Origin: Tricharina praecox
Lineage: Eukaryota
NCBI RefSeq assembly: GCF_024521635.1
Contig: NW_026250411.1
Coordinates: 992,001 to 1,056,000 of the forward strand
Length of the DNA: 64,000 bases
Reading direction: 5' to 3'
A program made the position numbers and the translations under genes. The notes below the pieces were generated by a model. The model searched no databases. It had not been told where the DNA came from and saw nothing but the letters and a program-made list of their open reading frames with translations. Below are positions 11,352 through 24,029 of the stretch, in pieces (the stretch's first letter is position 1; each line of letters starts with the position of its first letter).

Positions 11352-13204
11352 GGAGCGGAGCGGAGGGGAGGGGAGGTACGATGACCCAGTTACCGGCTGG
11401 AAGAGCTTGTTTGCTTGGAATGCGGCGATAGCGACGTCACTCCGGTGAAGGGATCGGATCGGATCGTCTCTGTCGCTCGCGAACGCTCAAAGCGACGCAG
11501 CGAGTCGACGATTGTGAATTGCAATTGCAATTGGTGCGGTGGTGGTGGTGGTGGTGGAATACTCTGCTCGGTACAGGTACACAAGATAACTATATCTTGA
11601 GCTGAGCTGACTCACTGAGCCTGAGCTGAGCTGAGCCCAAGGAAACTGGAAGATACCCAATGCGTACATAAAAAGAACAAGCCCGCAAGCGAATACCTGA
11701 GTACTGACATACCGGTCTCACAGAATCTCACAAAATCTCCTAGTGTTTCTATTGGTGATGTTTCTTACCCATTGGATGATTCTGATTATATGTCTCCGAA
11801 AAGTCGCCGAGCAGTTCCGTTGCATGCCTGATTCCTTATGGCAGTCTCAACGGATTCCGCTTTGGAGAAGGTACTATAGATATCGAGTACCGGCTTCTGG
11901 ATGTCACTTCCATGTCGATCTTATGTACTTTTAGAGGGTTTGGGGGGAAGGAGGTTTGGGTGGGATAGGATGGGAGCGAGGGCAAGGAGACGGAAATTTG
12001 TTGGACGTCGGGGACGTCTTTTTCTCCATCTCTCTCCCTCTTGATGTAGGTTGCCTGATCGAGCAAGACCACCATCGACTGGCACTGGCTGCACGCCCCC
12101 TGCTTTGAGATGGAACCTGTCTGGCTATGCACGCCCAAGTTGCCCAACAGAAACTCGATGATGCATGTAATGCAGCACCGAGGTTGTCGCTTTAGATATC
12201 GGTACCGGTACCGGCATCACACACATCTCGGACATGAAGCGCGAGAGGGGAAGGCCTACCTGCTATACATAGGAGGTGATTGCAAGGGGAGTAGAGTATC
12301 CAGATGTAGTAAGAGTGCGTAGAGTAAGTGAGATACCTAGTAGGCACGTCCCGAGCCGCCGCCGCCGCTGTCGCCGCCGCTGTCAGGAGGGACTGTCAGG
12401 CAGACAGGAGGGAGAGACTGTCAGGACTCAGGAGGGAGTCTGTTCGTGCGTGCGTGCTAGTAGTGCGTGCGTGCGAACGTGCCCGGGTGGGTCGCCTGCG
12501 CCGTAACCCTAGGCCGCGAATTGGGCCGCAACTTGGGCCGCAACCTGACTGGACTCCTTCTGCTTCCGCTCCGATTTGATTTGAATCGACTCGACAGGGT
12601 TCTGCGAATACCGGTTATCTAGGTACTCTAGAGTGGAGTCTGGAGCAATGATGGCTATCTGGGCTCGGATCTGGTGAGCATCGGAGCTTTTGAAACGATA
12701 GCGGGAAGGCTTGATTGCCCCATTCGCAGCTGCTGCCGCTGCCGCATTGCATCGGATTGGGGCAGGGGAGGGGGGGGGGGGGCGGCTCGAGTTGAGTTGG
12801 GCGGAGTGTTGGTGGTCCGGGGGGACTCCAGATGAGGAAGAGGAAGAGGATGAGGAAGAAGAAGGGCTGAACTCCAAGTCTCCAACTCCAGCTGTCAGCC
12901 GTACCTACCCAGGTACTCTTCTTACCGGGTACCGTGGCAGATGCGGAGGATGCGGAGAAAATCACAAAAACAACAAAAACAACAACAGAAGCAACATCCG
13001 TCCGGACTCCGCGGCGATAACACGATTGATGTGTTTTTCGGGAGGAAATTCGGATACGATTGAGTGGAGGAGGATCCATCCATACCTGTGTGCGAGTATG
13101 GTACCGTCGAACGCACAGTTACATGATGGTTATTGGCCGGCTACATTCGCCGAGAAGACGAGGGGAGTGCAAATGTGCAAGTGTTGTATCCAGTGCGGCT
13201 GCGC

Positions 13205-13282
13205 TTCCCAAGTTCCCAAGTTCCCAAGTTCCCAAGTTCCCAAGTTCCCAAGTTCCCAAGTTCCCAAGTTCCCAAGTTCCCA
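13205..13282. repeat. 8-bp tandem repeat (TTCCCAAG)x9+
   Basis: Read directly. Confidence 0.95.
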
Positions 13283-16200
13283 TTACGTCCGTCCATCAGA
13301 TGTAGTTACATAGACCGCAATATACGGTAACCACTACAGTAGTATGATACGCGTGGGCGATGGAGATGAAGGCGGCGCATCTGGAGTAACCACTCTAACC
13401 ACTCTATACTCTACTAGCATCTACCGGCAAACTGCGGCTTCATCATTCATGGCAAACCAGTGCTGTCTGTTCGGTAATTAGAGTGTGTAACCGTACATAT
13501 GTCTGTGTATGAACGATCACCCCCCTCCCCCGCGCCCGGATAGAGTAAGCACACAACGGCCGGCCTGGTTTATTCTTGTTCTTGTTCTTTCTTGCCAGCA
13601 GCCAGATCAACGTTGGATCTGCACAGAGTACCTACTCTACCGGTACTATATAGAGTAGTAACTAAGCCCAAAGTATGGTACCCATTCCCTCCCATACGAT
13701 GTACGATGCGTGGAGTACTTTATGCTGCTGTGGGAGCGGATAACTACTAGTACATGAGTCCAACATCCATCATTTGAAGGGGGCGTTGTCTATCATCGGT
13801 ATGATACCGTAAGTGCCTACTCTACACCAACCTACCTAGAATACCTGCATACATACATAACACTAGATCGTTCTCCAACGTTCCGCTATCCACGGTCCCT
13901 CCACCAGGCCCCGCCAGGCCAGGCCGGGCCGGACCAGGTCAGGGCCAGGGCCAGGTGTGGCACTGTAGAAGGGACTCTACTCTCTATCATAGCACTCCCC
14001 TCCGGCCCTCTTCCTGACCCTTTCTTAAGTCTTGACCGTGACGGACTCGGAGCAGCCAGCTGCCAGCCATGCACAGCAGCTATCTACCTGGCTAACTGGC
14101 TAAGTAGAGCACCTCACCTGCTACATCGGACGTGAGTCCTGGCCCCACGCTGCTGCGTCGCTGCCCCCCGACCCCTCCCCCCTCTCGCGAACTGACTGGC
14201 CACAGAACAGCCAGCCCTCCGGGATTCCTCTGGGATTCGCGTGGTGCGTGGTGCGTGGTGTGTGGTCCGTCCGTCTGTCACGTCAAAACCGCTCGATCTT
14301 TCCCTTTCCCCCCCACCCCCCATCCCTACAATTGACAAACGTCAGGCGTAAACGGGTTAGAGTAGAAGGAGGTATCTAAGATGGTTCCGCGCTGGAGTTG
14401 CTGGGCGTAAATTGGTACATCGTTAGTTAGCTGGGCGCTCCAGTGGAGACCTTGGTTACCTGCCTAGCATGTGTAACAGTTGTGGAGTGCTCGCTCGCCA
14501 CCGGTTAGTTGTGTATCTAGACTCCATGGAGAGCAGCTGGAGCAGGAGTGTAGATATGCGGCATGCCAAAACCCTCGATCGGTGCCCACGCCAAGAGATC
14601 GTTCGGAACGCCTCTCGGTTCTTCCTGCCTCTGAGATTCTGCACTCGAGTAGAGTGCTAACCACATCGATCCGACCGGCTCCCTGTTTGGAACGTCTGCC
14701 CGTCATGCTGCCCGTGGGGCTTGATATCGGCCCATCTCTGCCGACCGGTGTCGTTTTCGTCGTCAGTCGTCGTCGTCGTCGACGCTGTCCTACATGGAGT
14801 ACCGATATGTATCCAACAGGCCTTCTTTACTTCTTTACTTCCTTTCTTCTTTTACTTCTTTCCTTCCACTTCCTTCCTTCCTTACCTCCGTACCTCCGTA
14901 CTTCCTTCTCTCCTTCCACTCCATCGCGCATCCAACGAGAACAGAAGAAGAAGGAAAAACTCGTTGCGGACTTACGGTGTCGATGGAAAAGTTCTGCTTC
15001 TCCGCCTGGATCGCCTATGTGCCAATGAGCAACTCCCCAGCCAGCAACAGCGGCGGCGGCGGCTGTGGCATACGTAAGCACGTATGTGTGTCTATATATG
15101 CACATATCTGCCGTATGTGCTAAACTCTTCATACGCATCGTCGCATCGTCGCATTCTAGACTGTGAGTCTGTGTCTGTCTGCCCCACTCGAGACGAGAAA
15201 ACATCATCAGCAGCAGCCACGAGGAAAAAAATAGCAGTGCGTCGCGGGATGCGATACGCTCTTCGTCTCGTTCTTCAATTCTGCTGTGGGTGTTGTGGGT
15301 GTTGTGTCTCACCCGTGCATAACATAACTATCCCTGGCTCAAGAATCAAGATGCATGCTGGCATAAGATGCTGCCCGCTGGCGTAGATGAGTGGTGGTGA
15401 GCACTGCGAGTCTGCGAGGAAGGGGAGGGAAGTCGGTCTCGTCTCGGGTGTTTCCCTCTTCCTTTGAGTCTGGTCCGTGGTTGGGCTGGTTGGCGAGCTG
15501 CGAGCTGGTGCTACGAGCTGAGTGCTGAGCGCTGAGCACCGAGTGCTATCTAGTGGCCCCGCCGGCACCATGGAGTCGTCGACGGGAAGCCGTTCGAACT
15601 TCGCCGTTTGGTGATCCTCATTCCTTCTGGGTATTCCTTCAATTCCCAATTCCCCATACATATACATAAACATGTAAGTACTGCCTGCCTGCCTGCCCAG
15701 CGCCTGCCAGTCACTCGTATATTCTTCTAGTTACATACATCCTACATAGTCCTCATGTATGTACTCTACTTACATCTTATGTACGCAACGCACGCAGCCT
15801 CGACCGCCGCCGCTGCATGCGCTCAGACGAGCAGCCACAATTCGCAATCCACAATCCACAATCAACTGCGACGGCTGGATATGTAGCCGCCCAGCTTCCG
15901 CACCTTCCTTCCCCCGCGCACGCAGACATATTATACACCTCCAACTAGGCAGTTACCCAACTTCCCATCCCAACTACGGTACTCCTTACCCGTGATTTGG
16001 ATCCCCAAGTTGTACTGTATGTATGTGCATACATACCCCATGAACCCGTCGACATGGGACGGATCTACATGCTCACCCAGCTTCGAACGGCAGAAGAGAG
16101 GGAGGATTGACATCCCGACCCCACAAGATTGCTTACTCCCCCCTCCCCTCCTTCTCTTTCCACACCACGAAGGGCAAGGAAAGGGGGTAGAGTAGAGTAG

Positions 16201-18232
16201 AGTAGAGTAAGTATCGGAGCCTGAAGCAGGATAGGATAGTTATGTAGGTAGAGTAGCTACCTGGGTAGTTAGGGTCAAAAAGCAAATCGACGATGCGTCT
16301 TTCACCGATTGCTGCTGCTGCTGGTGGTGGTGGTGCTCCTGGTGGTGTTGCTGTAGCTGTTGCGTGCCGTCCGCTCACTTTTTTTCGGGCATATACGGTT
16401 GGTACGGTCTCTGGGCTAGCGAAAAAAACATGTGGCGCATCTGGATTCTGGATTCTCACAACCATCCATCTGGCTTCCTCTGCTCTTCTCGGCGCTGCTC
16501 TGCTCGGATCTTCCAATGGCGGAAAGATCAGGGCCTTAACTTATATGGTAACTTAACTTATATGGGTACTCTACTCTACTCTACTCTATCCGCCTTGGTT
16601 CTAGACGCCTCCGCGAGAGGAGAGGAGAGGGATTGTCCGCTGTTTTATCTTGTCTCGTCTCGACCGACCGGGTCCTTTAGATACATATTTGGTCTCGGTG
16701 TTAACTTGGGGTCTCAGTCGCTACTGGTAGGGTAGAGTTGGACTGCGCTGGACTGGACTGGACCGGACCGGTTGGTGACCGACCCCCCCCCCCCCCCAGG
16801 TGCCATACCTCGATACCGGTAATTGCTTCTTTCCCCGCATAAAAGTTATTAGTTATGTATCCAGATATGTAAGTACCAAGTACCAATCTATGTCTCTGTC
16901 CGCTGGATTCCCGCTGGGTTCCCGCTGGGTTCCCGACTTTCGATGGATATAACTAGAGCAGTAGTAGTGCTGGAGCGGACTCCGATCGAGAGAGAGAGAG
17001 CTCGAAGCGTGGAACAGAGCTTGGAACAGAGCTAGGCACTACATAGAAGTTGGCTTCTCCTTTCGTTCAGCTGGCAACCATCGCCCCAATTCGTGCCCGA
17101 TCTATAGCACTGCATAGCAAGCTTGCGCTCGGCCTTGTCCGTAAACTGTCCGTCGTCTCGCCGGTGGTCTCATCCGACGACGACGACGACGACGACGACG
17201 AAGTGAAGCTGTGAGCGCAGGACAGGAGAGCGGCGCGGGATCGTGGTGGGCTGGCGGGTAGTCCGTCCGTCGTAGATGTCGAATTCTGAGGTGTAAACAC
17301 GGAGTTGAGCTGTGGGAAGTACTCTATCATGGTCTGTATATAAAGAGGACTGTGTATGAAGGAAGTGACGGATGGGAGAAACAAAAGAAACTAAAGAATC
17401 AACAGAAACAAAAGAAACATAAGAAAGCTGTGAGCGCCAGGATAGGCAGTTCCCGGGCGGTTTATGTACGATTATTATTATTATCTCGCAGGCCGGGATA
17501 GGGAGATCTTACCCAGGCTTGGGTGGAAGTGCCTTGCTATGTATGCTATGGGTGTATGTATGTGTGATATGTATGTGTGATATGTATGTGTGTACTCCAG
17601 AGCACCCAAGTGGTTACATACTCGCTCCAGTTCAGTGGACTACCCAGCAGAGCATAGCTGCCGTTCATCTCGTCGGCTCGCTCTGGAAGTGTCTTGGATC
17701 TCGGTGGCACCGTGAAAAGAACCCGATGGCAAAGGGTGTGGAGGGGCATTGTGGCCCATGGACGCTGCATAGGCGTTAGGGGCAAAAAAAACCAATCTGC
17801 TCCCACCAGCATCACCATCTCGATCCCTTTTTCCCGGGTACTACTCTACCCCTCGGCCGCCGCCACCCCTTCTACCCCTCTCTAGAGTACCCACACAATC
17901 TACTCCATGTATCTCTGCATATGTAGGCCGGCTCTCTATTCTTTTCCCAGCAGTTAGCGGGCCACACGAACGAACGAGCGAACGAACCAACGAACGAAAA
18001 AACCAACGAACCACGACGCAGGCGATTGCTCCTATCCTCCCTCACACCTTACTCCAAACCCGCCCGCCACGCCCTCCTCCTCCTCTTCTTCGGCCACTCA
18101 AAACCCTTTCGTGTCCGTGTCACATTGTTGCGGACCTAGCTGCTCCTAACTAAGGACGAGTACTCCCACCACCTACGTAGACAGAAGTGTGCCCTTCGCG
18201 ACATCGGCATTCACCCAGCCGCCGCCGCCCCG

Positions 18233-18234
18233 AA

Positions 18235-18270
<36 letters not shown>

Positions 18271-18272
18271 AA
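18233..18272. repeat. (GAAA)n microsatellite
   Basis: Read directly; lies within the putative nsdD leader. Confidence 0.9.
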
Positions 18273-19879
18273 AAACGCCTCCTTTGCCCTCAGCTTCTTT
18301 CTTCTCTCTTCCTCTTCGTCTTTGCCCTTGGCTTGCTCGTGCCTGTCTGCACTGCGCTGCCCGTCTCCTTCGTGTCTGCTGTTGCGTGTCGCGAGTCTCG
18401 ACACCGACGTCCGGTCAGTGCGGAATAAAAAAGACTTGGCTCTTCGTAACGTGTACCTACTATACTTCGAGTCTATAGTTACCGCCGTCGGTGGAGGGCA
18501 ACGGACGATTGCCGTGTTTGTCTGGCTGCGGCCAGCCTGTCTGTCTGTCTGTCCGTCTGCCTGCCGTCTGGCTGACTGGCTCCCTCGCTGGCTGGCTCGC
18601 TGGGATCTGGGGTGGGTTGTGTGAGCTTGCTGGGTATTATTGCAGACCGCCACATTCTTTTCCTGCGATCCGATCCATTTCATCCACATCGTCCACCAAT
18701 CTCCCGAGTTATCTGAACCCGTCGCCCGGGAACCTAGCAAGCAAGCAAGCAAGCAAGCAAAAGCAGGCAAGCAGAGCAAAGCCACGCAGAGCAGAGCAAC
18801 CAAGCAAGCAGCGAAGGAACCTTGACGGGCTGTGTGTGTGTGCTCACCTTTTTTGTCGAATCGGGCCTTCACGCACCCCTCCTGATCGATCCCATTCTCA
18901 ACTCAACCTCTCTCTTGCCTGCTCCTCCCCCCCTCCCCCTCCCTCTCCCGTCTCCGCTCAGCACACCCAAAACTGCCTGCCTCTGCTTTTCCCGCTCCTG
19001 GGCCCACCGTACCGCTCTCCGCTACTTACTCGATTATCGATATCTCTCCTGCGGCTCCCTAACACCCCCCATCCCCCCCCCCCCCCACCACCTCCCGCAT
19101 TTCCTAATTCACTACCCGTCCGCTGCCAGCCTCGCCACTCCTTCTCACTCGCGGCAGTCGTCCACTGCCATTATTCCTTGTTTTTTTTTGGGCGCAGTTC
19201 GTGGCCTGCGGCATCCGAAACTAAGAAGCTCCCGGAAAGGATACCGAGTCGGCGCGTCGACACACCGTGGACAAGATCTGTCCACGATCCTGGACTTAAG
19301 CGGCCGTCAGCATATCGATCCACCCATACACACCTGTCTAGTCAACCGAGAGTGATAACTCTCCCTCCCCTCCCACTCCCACCATCACCTACCACCATCC
19401 CGGAGTGCTTTGGCATTGCCGCCCCCGTCCAGTACATAGATAGTCTCCACCCTCCCGCGCGAAGTGACGGTGTTGTTTTTTTCCCTTGCCGCCCTACCAT
19501 CGCTAGGACGACATAGATTCGGTAGCTACACCACCACACCACCCAAGGTTCACCTCAACGTCAACGATAGCTTCCATCCCCGAGGACCTTGCCCACCGGA
19601 AAGACTCGCTGTGCCCCCCCCCATTCAACTCGACAATCGAAAAGAAAAAAAAAGTCTGCGCATTGTTTGCACCAGCTTGCAACAGCTTGCAACAACAATA
19701 ACGCCACGCACCACCACCACCACCACCACCAAGAAGGATCAGGATCAGGGTCAGGACCCCAGGACGTCCTCTTCTTGCACAATAGAAAAACGGAATCACA
19801 CCGCACGAAAACGATAAAATCCTTCACCATAACTTCTTTTACGAAACCACCGTCACCTCCTTTGTCTCCCGCCCCAGGC

Positions 19880-21927
19880 ATGGAGTCATCGGAAATCCGA
19901 AGGCAGAGGTACGTTTATCGCAACCCCCCACACACATATGATTGATCTTTCCTTCCCGCCCCCGCATGAGGAGGAGGTATGGAGGAGGAAGTAGAGAGGA
20001 AGAGGTGGTGAAGGAAGAGGAGTAGGAGTAGGAGGAAGAGGGGTCTCAACTCACCTCGGATGCGCTTGAGCTTGAGTATGATAGGGTCTCGGACCAGGCT
20101 AATTCCTTTCTTGTAGCGAAGCCTTGCCATCCATCAACTATGCAGAGTACGAACGTGCCGCAAGGGATGGAGCTCAATATCATCAGCGGCATGCTTCGAA
20201 CCCTCGGCCAAGCTTGTCCGCCGCCTCTCCCATAAGCCCGACAACGATGTTTGGGCCTTTACCCCTCCAGAGCTATCCGCAGCAGCCGACAAATGGCATC
20301 CACACGCCCCCCGAATCACGTAGGACCTCCGATGACGTGCCACCACCGCCACCGCCGCCACCGAGTAGACAGTCCCTTCCGTCTCTACATGAAGCGCTCT
20401 ACGAGAAAGGAGGATCGTTTTCGGCGCCACAGACACCGCCCATTGGATCCGGGTCCTTCTCTATTCCGCAGCCTCGGACGAACTCGATATCAAACTCGAT
20501 GTCTCGAGGCGGGCCTTCGGAACCTGGGCTGCAATCGCATCCCCCTAGCCAGCCACTGACACCTCATGGTTACGTTCCTGCTTCGCAGCCTTCTGCTCAT
20601 GCTCCCCAGATTCCTCCCCCGCCAATGCCCACACATAGCCACGAACCGCCGTACGGCCGCCACGACAGCCAAAGCAATGGTCGCTCGCTGCCACCAAACC
20701 CATACTCGCAAGCGCAGCCCCCTCCTCCTACCATGCCGCCGATGCATCCTTCGGAGTCGTACCAACCACCACCGCCGCCGCCGCAGTCGCAATCAGCCCC
20801 GCCGCACCACTCGCAGTCGCCGCCTTATCAGTCGCATCCGCATTACCAACATGCTCCTCCTCCCAGCCAGGCGCCGCCATCACATTACCAGCCTTCAGCT
20901 CCATTCGGCAATGGCTCCGCTCCACCACCGCCGCCACAGCAGTCGACACAATACCCGCCATACTCACAAGCGTCGCATCACCACCATCACCATCACCATC
21001 AACAACAACACCCAGCGCCAGCGCCGCCTTCAGCTCCTCAACCGCAAAATCAGCCTCCATATCAGCCGCAGCACGCTCAACAGCAGCCGCAACCGCAACC
21101 GCAACAGTCTGGATATCCGTTTCCGCCACCCCAGACGGAGGCACCAAAAGGCATCAAACGTCCGAGCGGATATGGCAGCGCTATCGAGAGGGCACTTTCG
21201 ATATCCACATTAAGACGCGACATGGAAGCGGTATGCACACCTTGACATCGGATATTATCCGAACATGGCCGCTGACACTTTCCGACAGATTAAAGAACAT
21301 GCGGCGCGGATATATCATATCGTTGACCAGTACCAGATGCTAAGCGCTGGAGGGCAACAACCATACCCTGGCGGGCTGCACGCATCGCTGAGCGAGTTCA
21401 ACGAAGCGCTACAGCGCTCGCACAGAACTACGGAGGCTCTCAACAATTGCCATCAGGTTTTCCAGGATCTCTCCAACAGGGAAGTTGCGGAGCAGAACAA
21501 CCACAAGATGAGCGTCGTTCATACGTCAGAGTATGGCACGGATGATGGGCAAGCTTATCAGGATGATAATCGGTCAAACGGGTCGCAACAACCGGAGAAG
21601 AAGATGAGGCGAGGCGTAAGTGGTCAGATTTACCCGTTATCACATTTTTCGGCTAACCCTTTTGAATAGCGAGCTGCTCCTCCCGGTCGTTGTCACAGTT
21701 GCCACAGAGCGGAGACTCCGGAATGGCGGCGAGGCCCTGATGGTGCCCGAACATTGTGCAATGCTTGTGGATTGCGTACGTATTCCTGTATATCTCGAAT
21801 ATTTGGGCCCACAAACTAACGAATCTGCCATCGTACAGACTACGCCAAGCTTACGCGAAAGCTCAGTAAAAACCCGGCCGGGCCTGGAGCCCTGGCAGCC
21901 CGCAAACCGAATTCACCTCTTCCATGA
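19880..21927 (+). CDS. nsdD: GATA zinc-finger developmental transcription factor, NsdD/SUB-1/Pro44/Ltf1 ortholog
   Basis: Exons 19880-19908, 20117-21230, 21289-21615, 21670-21776 and 21839-21927. C-terminal C-X2-C-X18-C-X2-C finger [43 protein letters not shown]. Long Pro/Gln/His-rich region containing TPPESRR and [11 protein letters not shown]. Confidence 0.93.
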
Positions 21928-24029
21928 TGACACGGCTTGCGCATCATTTGACGAACGAAGAGAAATTTGCTTGGGGTTTTGGATTCTCTCCCCAGCTCGC
22001 CAGGTGCTGCACTTGGGGAATCTACTTGCTTGTTCATTCATTCATCATGGGGTTTTCTTTCGGAGTGGGGTTAGGGGATGGGGCGTTTTTCATGATTATG
22101 GTCAATCTTCTTTTTTATTTCCCTTTTTTTATTTATCCGAGCGTGTTCTACTACTGTCTGCAGTTAAAAGGTTGTGGTTTTTTCCCCGTACATTTCTGCC
22201 TTTATTTCATCCAGGAGTTGACAGCATCGTTCTGCTTATTCGCTTTTGGGGTCTCAACTTTTTTTTCCAACCATTTTTTTTCTCGTTAGCTTATAGCGTG
22301 GATTATGTGCACCTTCGCTATTCTACTCATCACCGTTACAACATTGATTGCTGCGTCTCTTCTCTTCTCTTCTTTCTTTCTTCTTTTTCTATTTTCTATT
22401 TTCATTTTCAAAAGAGGGTTTCTTTTTGGATTTCTGATTTTTTTTATATCATACTTCGAATTGGGTACTGTTGCAGTTTTTCCCACTTTTCACTTTCTTT
22501 CTTTTCACTCTTTCTTTTCTTTTCCCTCATCTTTCTTTCTTTCTTTCTTCTTTCTTTTTTTGATTACTTTTCTGGGCTCGGGTTTACCTGCATGCATGCG
22601 TGTGGTCATGGCGGATTCATTGAGCTTTTTCTCTGTTCTTTCGATTCTTTCGATTCTTTCTTTTTGGTGTGGGTATGTTTTCTTTCTTTCTTCACGGGGT
22701 TTTGAGGATTGGGATTGGGATGGGGGTGGGATGGGGATGGGATGGGATTGGATGGGGGTGGGGCATTGTTGCAGCAGGAGGTGGGAGGAGGTGTTTTCTA
22801 CCACTGGAAGAGTCGGGGTACTCGGGGTTTTCATAGGTATAAAAATCCTCATTTTTTTCTCTTGAGATTTGATCTTCTTGAGAGTTGAGCTTCTTGAGCT
22901 GGTACTATAAGGTGAGGGTGGGGAGTGCATTTTATCAAAAGTGATGGGGGCCTGGGGTTTATGGGGTTCTTTTATTTCCTTCATTTTCTTCCCTTCCTTC
23001 TTTTTTTTTCATTTTCTTCATTTTCTTTTGATACTCGCAGTTCGAGTGGCCGTCCGGCGTCTATACTAGGTATACTGTACTACTTAGGTATGAAAAGAAC
23101 TCGATACGAGAACTGTGGTCTATGGCTACTGGTCACGAGTGCTTCTTCCTTGGGTACATACGGTAGTTACCGGGGATATTCGATTCGATACTTATGGCAA
23201 AATTATGCCTTCCTTCTTCTTTGGACTTTACCGGGGAATCAATTTCAATATCGATCTCAAAACGGAGATTGGGGGGGGGATAAGGATTGGAATTACGCCT
23301 ACCGTCAAGGGCCCACCGTCAGGGAAGTCAGGAGGAAAGGGAAGGGCATACCTACTCTACCGTCAGGGAAGGAGAGAAGTGTAGGAAGGCCCAAGTGACC
23401 AAGTAACCAACTTCCAAGTGACCAAGTGAAAGAAGTGAAGGGAAGGGGAGGGAAAGAAGGGTCCGTGTGCGATCATCTACGATCTGGATCTGAGATGTAA
23501 GTGATCCGATGCCCGGCAGCCGCGATTAGTGCCGCGATGGGGCTGGGGCTGGGCCGCTGCTGGGGTATGGTGGGTATGTGTACCTACTCTACCTAGCATA
23601 AATGTAGTTGCGTCCTGCCAGACGAACATGGACGGGTTAGGACGGGAGAAGGGAAGGAGGGAGGAGGGGAAGGGTTCGAGATCGAGTTGGAGTTGGCTAG
23701 ACGTAAGGGACGGTTCGTAGATGTGGTCTGTGGTCTGTGGCAGTAGCAGCAGCAGTGCGAAGACAAAGACGAGATCATCGGTTCCAGCCAGCTGGCGGAT
23801 TTCGTTCTCTACGGGATGCTCGCGGGGAGGCTAGAGCATGTACTTACTCTACATAGGGCTCGGCCACGCTTGTATCGTATCGTATCGTATCGTATTGTGG
23901 ATCGTCTGCTACTGCTACTGCTGGATGCCTAGTTTGTAACTTGGCAGTTGGTATGTAGACGAACCAACATAACCAACGCAACCCACATACAAAAGTTCCC
24001 AAAAGCACCCACCGAGCTGAGCTCCCCAT

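Follow-up and report, generated by a model that had tools for sequence, protein, structure and literature searches.

A nearly 2-kb ATG-free interval upstream of an NsdD-type GATA factor gene in Tricharina praecox

The nsdD locus and its transcripts

The window analyzed here is a 64-kb stretch of Tricharina praecox DNA. On its + strand, an ATG-free interval of 1956 nt (17924-19879) lies between ATGs at 17921 and 19880. By homology, the ATG at 19880 that closes it is the conserved start codon of a Pezizomycete GATA factor of the NsdD/PRO44/SUB-1 type. Exon 1 (19880-19908) is a 29-nt micro-exon that contains this start codon, encodes MESSEIRRQ and is joined to position 20117 across a GT..AG intron of 208 nt (19909-20116) holding 5 ATGs. 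The later coding exons on the same strand (20117-21230, 21289-21615, 21670-21775 and 21839-21927) are given by spliced RNA contigs, and the 3' UTR extends from 21928 to 22630 (X1 record 4 ends at 22630, X2 record 9 at 22521). The encoded protein of 554 aa has a single C-terminal GATA zinc finger (Pfam PF00320, E 1.1e-13, 50.9 bits with a cut-off of 26.8; window positions 21670-21774). With exon 2, not the full spliced protein, as the homology-search query, we found 7 matching Pezizomycete proteins (Wilcoxina 65%, Pyronema 56%), which have N-terminal and central blocks in common and 6 of which contain PF00320. Their N-termini read MESSD.RRQ in Wilcoxina, Rhizina and Tuber and MESADARRP in Pyronema, and one homologous start codon was found in 40 of 44 loci. 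The Pyronema protein appears to be the pro44 ortholog, as judged from PMC3778014 and name matching. Full-length similarity, including the conserved N-terminus, points to membership in the NsdD/SUB-1/PRO44/LTF1 family.

The abundant mRNA of this gene begins at about 19101-19181, as read from spliced RNA contigs of two runs (X1 and X2), the ends of which cannot show transcription start. X1 record 4, with 3171 nt and depth 776, extends unbroken from 19101 to 19906 and then crosses four GT..AG introns. In X2, record 9 (depth 730) begins at 19181 and likewise contains leader and coding sequence in one spliced contig. The 24 loose letters ahead of 19101 in X1 record 4 are presumably sequencing adapter. 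The leader of this mRNA, the proximal part of the ATG-free interval (19101-19879, + strand), measures at least 779 nt and sits on one transcript with the coding sequence, placing the 5' end 779 nt upstream of the start codon rather than within a few hundred nucleotides of it. A few identical short pieces from the metatranscriptomes X3 and X6 (19096-19302, 19686-19856 and 19459-19635) fall on the proximal leader and coding sequence, including a 100%-identical X3 contig that starts at 19096. Upstream of 19.09 kb, these two sets gave low-complexity matches alone, and absence of cover there proves nothing.

A poly-C tract (19065-19086, + strand), with C/T-rich blocks before it at 18924-18955, lies just upstream of this 5' end. 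In fungi, transcription starts are known to follow pyrimidine tracts; the poly-C tract could also act as a breakpoint for assemblies. Going upstream, RNA depth falls at about 19.1 kb from about 750 to about 10-20. The low-depth contigs comprise 17965-18185 (depth 24) and 18327-18525 (depth 20) in X1 and one 720-nt record, 18358-19077 (depth 8.8), in X2. RNA over 17965-19077 thus amounts to roughly 1-3% of the depth of the abundant mRNA, i.e. it is 30-90 times less deep. Among the pieces listed for X1 and X2 (strand not given), none joins this RNA to the mRNA contig. Farther upstream, a stretch without RNA cover (17368-17801; depth 0 in X1, 0-0.64 in X2), within which lies a (TATG)n array at 17538-17594, parts an upstream transcript from the ATG-free zone. 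Because this stretch is silent in the same runs, its lack of cover argues against DNA carry-over or read-through as the source of the 17965-19077 RNA.

The initial annotation had suggested a transcription start near 17.9-18.1 kb. This was not borne out: the abundant mRNA starts at about 19.10-19.18 kb and the contigs upstream of it have depths of 8-24 vs 730-776, so that a start near 17.9 kb could account for no more than an isoform that is minor or made under certain conditions. The distal ATG-free part (17924-19100, + strand) is a candidate leader of such a rarer, longer isoform, with a plausible, putative start near 17.93-17.97 kb. The very long 5' leader proposed in the same annotation therefore stands for 19101-19879, and for the distal part only as a plausible extension. 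In the region beyond the uncovered stretch, a transcript covers 16500-17367, and no ORF of at least 110 aa with obvious gene structure was found in 12.5-17.5 kb.

Strand-specific depletion of ATG

The gap between the flanking + strand ATGs is 1959 nt by direct count, exactly as first annotated. The 64-kb window served as background for gap length and for the rate at which AT is followed by G; the second-longest of its 1030 ATG gaps measures 571 nt. An expectation of about 30 ATGs, as initially quoted, is correct for uniform composition but not for the actual sequence. It drops to 18.9 with the real base composition of the interval (C 705, T 431, A 428, G 392), to 14.4 with its dinucleotides, and to 14.1 and 11.4 with blockwise composition in 200-nt and 100-nt blocks, respectively, vs 0 observed. 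Dinucleotide-preserving shuffling of the whole interval gave no ATG-free sequence in 20,000 trials (mean 14.4, minimum 4), and neither did 20,000 shuffles confined to 200-nt blocks. For the distal part alone (17924-19100; 7.9 expected), zero ATG was reached in 0 of 20,000 such dinucleotide shuffles (mean 7.9, minimum 1), and for the proximal part alone (19101-19879) in 15 of 20,000.

Inside the interval, AT was followed by G in 0 of 64 cases, compared with 1030 of 3387 (30%) outside it in the window (P about 8e-11), and TG was preceded by A in 0 of 97 cases (23% elsewhere). The switch at 17921 is sharp. In the 2 kb upstream, AT was followed by G in 33 of 116 cases, with 16 ATGs between 17464 and 17921; the count then drops to zero. 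The antisense strand is normal: CAT, described initially as common, starts 25 times within 17924-19879, 24 times in the interior (22.1 expected) and once overlapping the start codon, and in the distal part 10 times vs 9.4 expected. ATG depletion is thus strand-specific and goes beyond local composition, which the shuffles and the 0 of 64 rule out as a full explanation of the absence of ATG. The purge ends at the homology-confirmed start codon.

Upstream ATGs and leader features in orthologs

The ortholog set consisted of 24 non-redundant loci (clusters) from metagenome contigs, which are not fully independent because of residual kinship (e.g. 73% between L010 and L017). Depletion of ATG upstream of nsdD orthologs, suggested initially as a check, was clearly positive: 36 ATGs were observed at -600 to -1 vs 160.4 expected, making ATG the most depleted of the 64 trinucleotides. 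The next most depleted was TTA, at 0.67, and CAT ranked 36. At -2500 to -1200 ATG ranked 33 of 64, i.e. normal, the return to normal occurring beyond about -900. In each of the 17 loci whose upstream sequence reached 600 nt or more, upstream ATGs were fewer than expected. These comparisons indicate that orthologs share the upstream AUG depletion, which is limited to the leader zone. For most of them, the depleted stretch spans about 0.6-0.9 kb only, which is a better fit to the proximal leader than to a leader of 1.96 kb. Many lineages keep one or two proximal upstream ATGs, at -44/-45 (7 loci), at -59 (5 loci), or at about -47 to -64 plus -118 to -135 (others). Absence of AUG uORFs, as initially claimed, therefore describes T. 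praecox but not the gene family.

Two Tuber-like loci (L003 and L006) have a longer depleted zone, with 5 ATGs each over 1835 and 1902 nt (14.4 and 14.9 expected), while the next 1900 nt beyond contain 37 and 39 (30.4 and 32.3 expected). Their ATG-poor boundaries, at -1838 and -1905, are close to that of the window at -1959, and in the corresponding distal zone they have their own ATG-free run of 846-923 nt, with normal density farther out. By blastn, the window and the Tuber-like loci are 79-81% identical over 94 nt (-62 to +31). This alignment delimits a conserved leader element of about 62 nt directly before the AUG (19818-19879, + strand), the last ~30 nt of which are nearly invariant; the differences within it show no 3-nt periodicity. 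Beyond the last ~62 nt, blastn of the window against the Tuber-like leaders returned only microsatellite-type matches.

The distal part contains many microsatellites incompatible with ATG: (ACGA)n, (AAAG)n, (CTGT)n, (CTGG)n and (AGCA)n. No Rfam 15 family matched the interval at the gathering-score cut-off, and the 4 sub-threshold matches all fell on (AAAG)n/(CTTC)n repeats at 18234-18326 (18-24.5 bits vs cut-offs of 62-100). The predicted MFE per 120 nt is -21.8 kcal/mol for the sense leader, vs -30.3 for the window and -31.4 for the leader's own antisense. Exon 2 is also predicted to fold weakly (residual +12.7), which makes weak folding a trait of the whole C-rich gene rather than of the leader.

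A probable long scanned leader and its alternatives

At least the last 0.8 kb of the interval is mRNA leader, and probably all 1.96 kb is. The upstream AUG purge is real, conserved and strand-specific, and lies in a long, probably scanned leader as an extreme case of a known phenomenon. We consider it rather likely that the interval as a whole is the 5' leader of the nsdD/pro44/sub-1 ortholog, selected to be AUG-free, with the distal 1177 nt (17924-19100) as the leader of a rarer or condition-specific isoform starting at about 17.93-17.97 kb. The interval would lack ATG because a long mRNA leader is kept clear of false start codons: a 43S complex loaded at the cap and scanning would be captured by any upstream AUG and miss the real start. 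The C-rich, G-poor sense RNA, with its weak predicted folding, may permit scanning over long distances, and the nearly invariant element of ~30-60 nt that adjoins the AUG probably serves to bind a factor or to set how efficiently initiation occurs. In this species, NsdD output would probably be set by scanning capacity or leader-binding proteins together with the choice of start site, in a two-promoter layout resembling that of A. nidulans nsdD, and not by AUG uORFs.

An unlikely alternative restricts the leader to the proximal ~0.8 kb. The distal 1.18 kb would then be promoter or an independent upstream non-coding transcript (acting e.g. by transcriptional interference) and would lack ATG through pyrimidine-rich, microsatellite-laden sequence and luck. 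The abrupt loss of RNA depth at about 19.1 kb, the lack of any listed contig bridging the poly-C tract into the mRNA contig, the many ATG-incompatible repeats and the 0.6-0.9-kb depleted zone typical of orthologs would all fit such an arrangement. However, no shuffle of the distal part alone came out free of ATG, CAT is at its normal frequency there, and the Tuber-like loci have an independent ATG-free run in the matching zone. We know of no reason for a non-coding promoter or lncRNA to shun ATG on one strand only.

That the whole gap reflects composition, or chance from scanning many windows, is hardly credible. Other trinucleotides do have long gaps in skewed stretches of the window (TTT 1536 nt, GTG 1283 nt), and by the number of missing occurrences ATG (11.4-14.4) exceeds the second most surprising trinucleotide (10.7) by a moderate margin only, although it is the top outlier among all 64. 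Chance would have to account for AT never being followed by G (P about 1e-10) and for 0 of 20,000 shuffles, for a gap that stops precisely where homology puts the start codon, and for an ATG-specific depletion that recurs in 24 ortholog clusters. Non-canonical use of the leader, through a non-AUG-initiated N-terminal extension or internal cap-independent entry, would turn the pre-AUG element into coding sequence or an entry site and make full-length scanning unnecessary. The start-codon frame is indeed open for 103 codons upstream (19571-19879), and the last ~62 nt are kept between distant Pezizomycetes. The differences in the element lack codon periodicity, which renders an N-terminal extension unlikely as the cause of its conservation, and conservation ends about 62 nt upstream; internal entry, for its part, predicts no selection against AUGs over the whole leader. 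The literature checked mentions no uORF or extension for an nsdD-type gene, and sub-1 is absent from the available text of PMC5487733. Such non-canonical use is very improbable.

A more far-reaching version of the scanned-leader model is possible, but we hold it only tentatively. Here ribosomes would scan the full 1.96 kb as one unbroken leader, on an isoform made from the distal promoter under developmental or light control. An AUG-purged architecture of ~1.9 kb would be ancestral in Pezizomycetes, as proposed from the shared boundary of the Tuber-like loci, and part of a family-wide translational control module: a long AUG-poor leader and an invariant pre-AUG element, with fixed proximal uORFs in other classes. 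If the full length is scanned, few AUG-free leaders on record would be as long, and the gene would offer a natural test bed for scanning distance and fidelity.

The choice between sexual and asexual development hinges on NsdD/SUB-1/PRO44/LTF1 as a core switch, which also acts in light responses and, in some pathogens, in virulence. Earlier work on it centered on transcription. An AUG purge on the kilobase scale across many fungal lineages argues for long-standing selection on NsdD translation and start-site choice. For annotators, the 2 kb of 'intergenic' DNA before nsdD is probably transcript, and the leader offers a clean natural substrate for tests of long-range scanning. The searched literature contained no paper on the AUG-free state of an nsdD-type leader or its conservation, although supplementary material could still hold one. 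Long leaders on developmental regulators have precedents in a different lineage and in different genes: the Candida albicans morphogenesis regulators UME6, EFG1 and WOR1 reportedly have kilobase-scale leaders that tune translational efficiency.

A close parallel is A. nidulans nsdD, of the same family, with a long leader and two transcripts with different starts, the second start being putative here (PMC4929475, as far as its accessible text goes, which is silent on AUG content). Its nsdD-beta and nsdD-alpha 5' UTRs measure 1,037 and 150 nt, compared with 779 nt (observed) to about 1.95 kb (putative) in T. praecox. The short A. nidulans transcript starts inside the gene and yields a protein 37 aa shorter, whereas both putative starts in the window lie upstream of one AUG. 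Selection against leader AUGs that capture initiating ribosomes follows the same logic as general upstream AUG depletion (Wallace et al. 2020, PMC7049704). According to the portion of that study available, short depleted leaders are exceptional in fungi and Neurospora and Cryptococcus leaders are long and AUG-rich; the window leader is very long with none. Filamentous fungi do have leaders of about 2 kb: very long 5' UTRs have been mapped in A. fumigatus, and transcription factors and kinases are over-represented among the genes with long leaders (PMC12810187, main text, which does not mention nsdD in the part available). Two 2.1-kb examples there contain 30 and 34 upstream AUGs, as opposed to 0 in 1956 nt, and their authors suspected misannotation or non-coding RNA. 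GCN4 and cpc-1 are also fungal transcription factor genes with long leaders (over 700 nt in cpc-1) and translational control (PMC5487733, available text). Their leaders work via AUG uORFs, whereas 17922-19879 contains no ATG, although in several nsdD orthologs one or two proximal ones persist. In B. cinerea, phenotypes arise from three T-DNA insertions that lie 1.608 kb ahead of the bcltf1 ORF (PMC3886904, available text). A long purged leader would explain why constructs or insertions so far upstream, such as the Botrytis T-DNA at -1.6 kb, matter.

ATG absence upstream of the nsdD-type start codon

The + strand ATGs flanking the interval 17924-19879 lie at 17921 and at 19880, the nsdD-type start codon. 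Counting confirmed the ATG-free stretch reported in the initial annotation, with a gap of 1959 nt; of the 1030 ATG gaps in the whole 64-kb window, no other exceeds 571 nt. About 30 ATGs had been expected. However, C is abundant and G scarce in this sequence (C 705, T 431, A 428, G 392), so that its base composition predicts 18.9. Dinucleotide frequencies predict 14.4, and block-wise estimates are 14.1 (200-nt blocks) and 11.4 (100-nt blocks). No other of the 64 trinucleotides is as rare in the interval as ATG; TGA comes next (n = 7). CAT is indeed common, with 25 starts, one overlapping the start codon and 24 interior (22.1 expected).

Dinucleotide-preserving shuffles (20,000 per region) of the whole interval never yielded a sequence free of ATG (0/20,000; mean 14.4, minimum 4), nor did shuffling within 200-nt blocks (0/20,000; mean 14.1, minimum 3). 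The distal part (17924-19100) likewise gave 0/20,000 (mean 7.9, minimum 1), and the proximal part (19101-19879) gave 15/20,000 (mean 5.7, minimum 0). AT was followed by G in 0 of 64 cases, compared to 1030 of 3387 (30%) in the remaining window (P about 8e-11), and TG was preceded by A in 0 of 97 cases, compared to 23%. This test is independent of microsatellites and agrees with the shuffles. In the 2 kb directly upstream, G follows AT in 33 of 116 cases; thus, the boundary at 17921 is sharp.

Within the 64-kb window, none of the 64 trinucleotides has a gap more surprising than that of ATG, with the caveat that skewed stretches also yield long TTT (1536 nt) and GTG (1283 nt) gaps. Expressed as missing occurrences, the ATG gap amounts to 11.4-14.4 and the runner-up gap of any trinucleotide to 10.7. 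The GTG gap and a TGT-free gap of 1191 nt arise from exon 2, a low-complexity region extremely rich in Pro, Gln and His with a run of eight His (window 20337-21691), showing that kilobase gaps of other trinucleotides can result from composition alone. TGA is also scarce in the interval (7 vs 23.3 expected from dinucleotides), with a TGA-free stretch of 860 nt at 17713-18573; selection against upstream AUGs (uAUGs) gives no account of this scarcity. Note that the ATG-free zone contains ~10 microsatellites, all of ATG-free types (ACGA, AAAG, CTGT, CTGG, AGCA, C-runs and CCA), and that a (TATG)n microsatellite (17538-17594) lies just outside it in an RNA-silent stretch.

Downstream gene and RNA cover of the leader

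RNA contigs define four GT..AG introns in the downstream gene, with coding exons on the + strand at 19880-19908, 20117-21230, 21289-21615, 21670-21775 and 21839-21927. The encoded protein has 554 amino acids and a GATA zinc finger in exon 4 (PF00320, E 1.1e-13). A search with exon 2 returned seven protein matches, all from Pezizomycetes: Wilcoxina (65% identity), Pyronema (56%), Rhizina, two Morchella, Tuber and Ascodesmis. The window thus derives from a Pezizomycete, and its own protein is absent from these matches. The start codon at 19880 is supported by homology, since the encoded N-terminus, MESSEIRRQ, matches those of Pezizomycete proteins (MESSD.RRQ in Wilcoxina, Rhizina and Tuber; MESADARRP in Pyronema). 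The gene belongs to the NsdD/SUB-1/PRO44/LTF1 group of developmental and light regulators (PMC3778014). Intron 1 (19909-20116, 208 nt) contains five ATGs, an ATG-rich stretch that the 1956-nt ATG-free interval precedes with only the 29-nt exon 1 in between.

Two sequencing runs, X1 and X2, have no more than a guessed RNA label, but splicing in their contigs shows them to be RNA. In each, a single contig of high depth matches the window exactly, at 19101-22630 in X1 (record 4, depth 776) and 19181-22521 in X2 (record 9, depth 730), representing the main mRNA. The X1 contig carries 24 loose letters ahead of 19101, presumably sequencing adapter; this would be consistent with numerous fragments that end at this position. 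An identical 207-nt contig in a metatranscriptome (X3) starts at 19096. A poly-C tract (19065-19086), preceded by C/T-rich blocks, lies just upstream. The nsdD leader is thus at least 779 nt long, its 5' limit being a contig end, which cannot prove a transcription start. The initial annotation had placed the start site near 17.9-18.1 kb; the main one lies about 1.2 kb further downstream.

Upstream of 19.1 kb, the X1 and X2 contigs listed are solely of low depth. X1 has 17965-18185 at depth 24 and 18327-18525 at depth 20, and X2 has a single 720-nt record at 18358-19077 (depth 8.8). This weak RNA starts no more than about 45 nt past the ATG boundary. DNA carry-over or read-through was ruled out as its source, because the preceding stretch is silent (two bins over 17368-17801; X1 depth 0, X2 depth 0-0.64). 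A separate transcript covers 16500-17367 (contig depth 17-148); it is possibly non-coding, and no convincing long ORF was found in the 5 kb upstream (12500-17367).

ATG depletion at nsdD ortholog loci

Scanning metagenome contigs with an exon-2 alignment identified 44 ortholog loci (L001-L044). Exon 1 is a micro-exon with conserved sequence (M-[E/D]-x-x-[D/E]-...-R-Q-R/S), usually with the intron at the same position, and 40 of the 44 loci have exactly one homology-defined start codon. L001, L002, L037 and L043 were left out for short upstream DNA. The other 40 loci formed 24 clusters, not all phylogenetically independent, by leader similarity (≥85% over ≥100 nt); the member with the longest upstream DNA was kept per cluster and the other 16 were dropped.

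In 100-nt bins from 0 to -600, ATG observed/expected ratios were 0.50, 0.30, 0.03, 0.23, 0.04 and 0.22 (CAT 0.89-1.31), followed by 0.65, 0.53 and 0.45 from -600 to -900 (CAT 0.94-1.42) and 0.79-1.25 from -900 to -3000 (CAT 0.55-1.32). Over the -600..-1 zone (13,070 nt), 36 ATGs were observed vs 160.4 expected. With this ratio of 0.22, ATG heads the 64 trinucleotides in depletion; TTA is next (0.67) and CAT ranks 36. In a control zone (-2500..-1200, 14 loci) ATG ranks 33 of 64. All 17 loci with ≥600 nt upstream had fewer upstream ATGs (uATGs) than expected (0-4 vs 5.6-10.1). The check on orthologs proposed in the initial annotation was therefore positive.

The layout of the remaining uATGs varies by lineage. 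None occur for 399-649 nt in L008/9, L013, L014/41, L030 and L042, or in the 501 nt available for L029. Seven loci (L007, L010, L015, L017, L023, L026, L040) have one fixed uATG at -44/-45 and five (L018-L022) have one at -59, each followed by a long free run. In the others (L011, L012, L016, L024, L027/28, L032-L036, L039, L044), uATGs lie at about -42 to -64 and/or -118 to -135. Many of these loci carry two, at about -47 to -64 and -118 to -135, then 340-1241 ATG-free nt in members with enough upstream DNA. The fixed-distance uATGs resemble short uORFs conserved within particular lineages; T. praecox has none of them. The absence of AUG uORFs proposed in the initial annotation thus holds for this species, but AUG uORFs do occur in other lineages.

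L003-L006 are probably of Tuber-like origin, judging from an N-terminus resembling the Tuber protein. L003 and L006 have ATGs at about -330 (three), -520 and -985, then none until -1838 and -1905. Their depleted zones contain 5 ATGs vs 14.4 and 14.9 expected, and the next 1900 nt contain 37 and 39 vs 30.4 and 32.3, indicating a second Pezizomycete lineage with an ATG-poor zone nearly as long. The window and the Tuber-like loci share 79-81% identity over 94 nt spanning the start. A conserved element occupies the ~62 nt before the AUG (window 19818-19879, L003 4823-4884, L006 4822-4883). The ~30 nt closest to the AUG hardly vary; they are more conserved than the first codons and lack codon periodicity. 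This pattern points to a nucleotide-level function rather than an N-terminal extension, making the element a candidate initiation-context or protein-binding element.

Interpretation of the leader

Selection against uAUGs in a long, cap-dependent, scanned leader is the most economical reading. For the proximal 779 nt it is demonstrated in every step except translation, and the scanning logic of the initial annotation, partly supported overall, holds here: depletion exceeds that in shuffles, and at least 779 nt are transcribed. Four observations suggest that the distal 1177 nt also serve as leader: they are depleted in their own right, the boundary is sharp, weak RNA begins just after it, and the Tuber-like zone matches. 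All four would be explained by a distal promoter that is minor or condition-specific. The main rival, less likely but compatible with the RNA data, is that the distal part is a promoter or a separate non-coding transcript; it cannot account for an ATG purge limited to one strand.

uAUG depletion in scanned leaders is textbook knowledge; length and completeness of AUG absence stand out here. A distal promoter would have a counterpart in A. nidulans, where nsdD has two transcripts with 5' UTRs of 1,037 and 150 nt (PMC4929475). It would also agree with the phenotypes caused in B. cinerea by three T-DNA insertions that lie 1.608 kb ahead of the ORF (PMC3886904). Published values are about 500 bp for S. 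macrospora pro44 UTRs (PMC6293562), a median 5' UTR of 156 nt for Pyronema (PMC3778014), and 30 and 34 uAUGs in two highlighted 2.1-kb leaders of A. fumigatus (PMC12810187). According to Wallace et al. (PMC7049704), leaders that are short and poor in uAUGs are the exception in fungi, and those of Neurospora are long and AUG-rich. No description of an AUG-free nsdD leader or its conservation was found in the literature searched. The leader seems an extreme case of uAUG depletion, and the family-wide pattern seems unreported.

Predicted folding in 120-nt segments was -21.8 kcal/mol for the sense leader; the window average was -30.3, and the antisense of the leader gave -31.4. The residual after GC correction was about +9.8; exon 2 is similarly weak (+12.7), and the weak folding is therefore a consequence of a coding strand that is C-rich and G-poor throughout the gene. 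No Rfam family scored above threshold in the interval. In the putative distal leader, CTTC/CTCT repeats lie about 20 nt downstream of an (AAAG)n run (18234-18322), where Rfam miRNA and snoRNA matches were all sub-threshold (18-24.5 bits); together the two repeats could form a long purine-pyrimidine hairpin.
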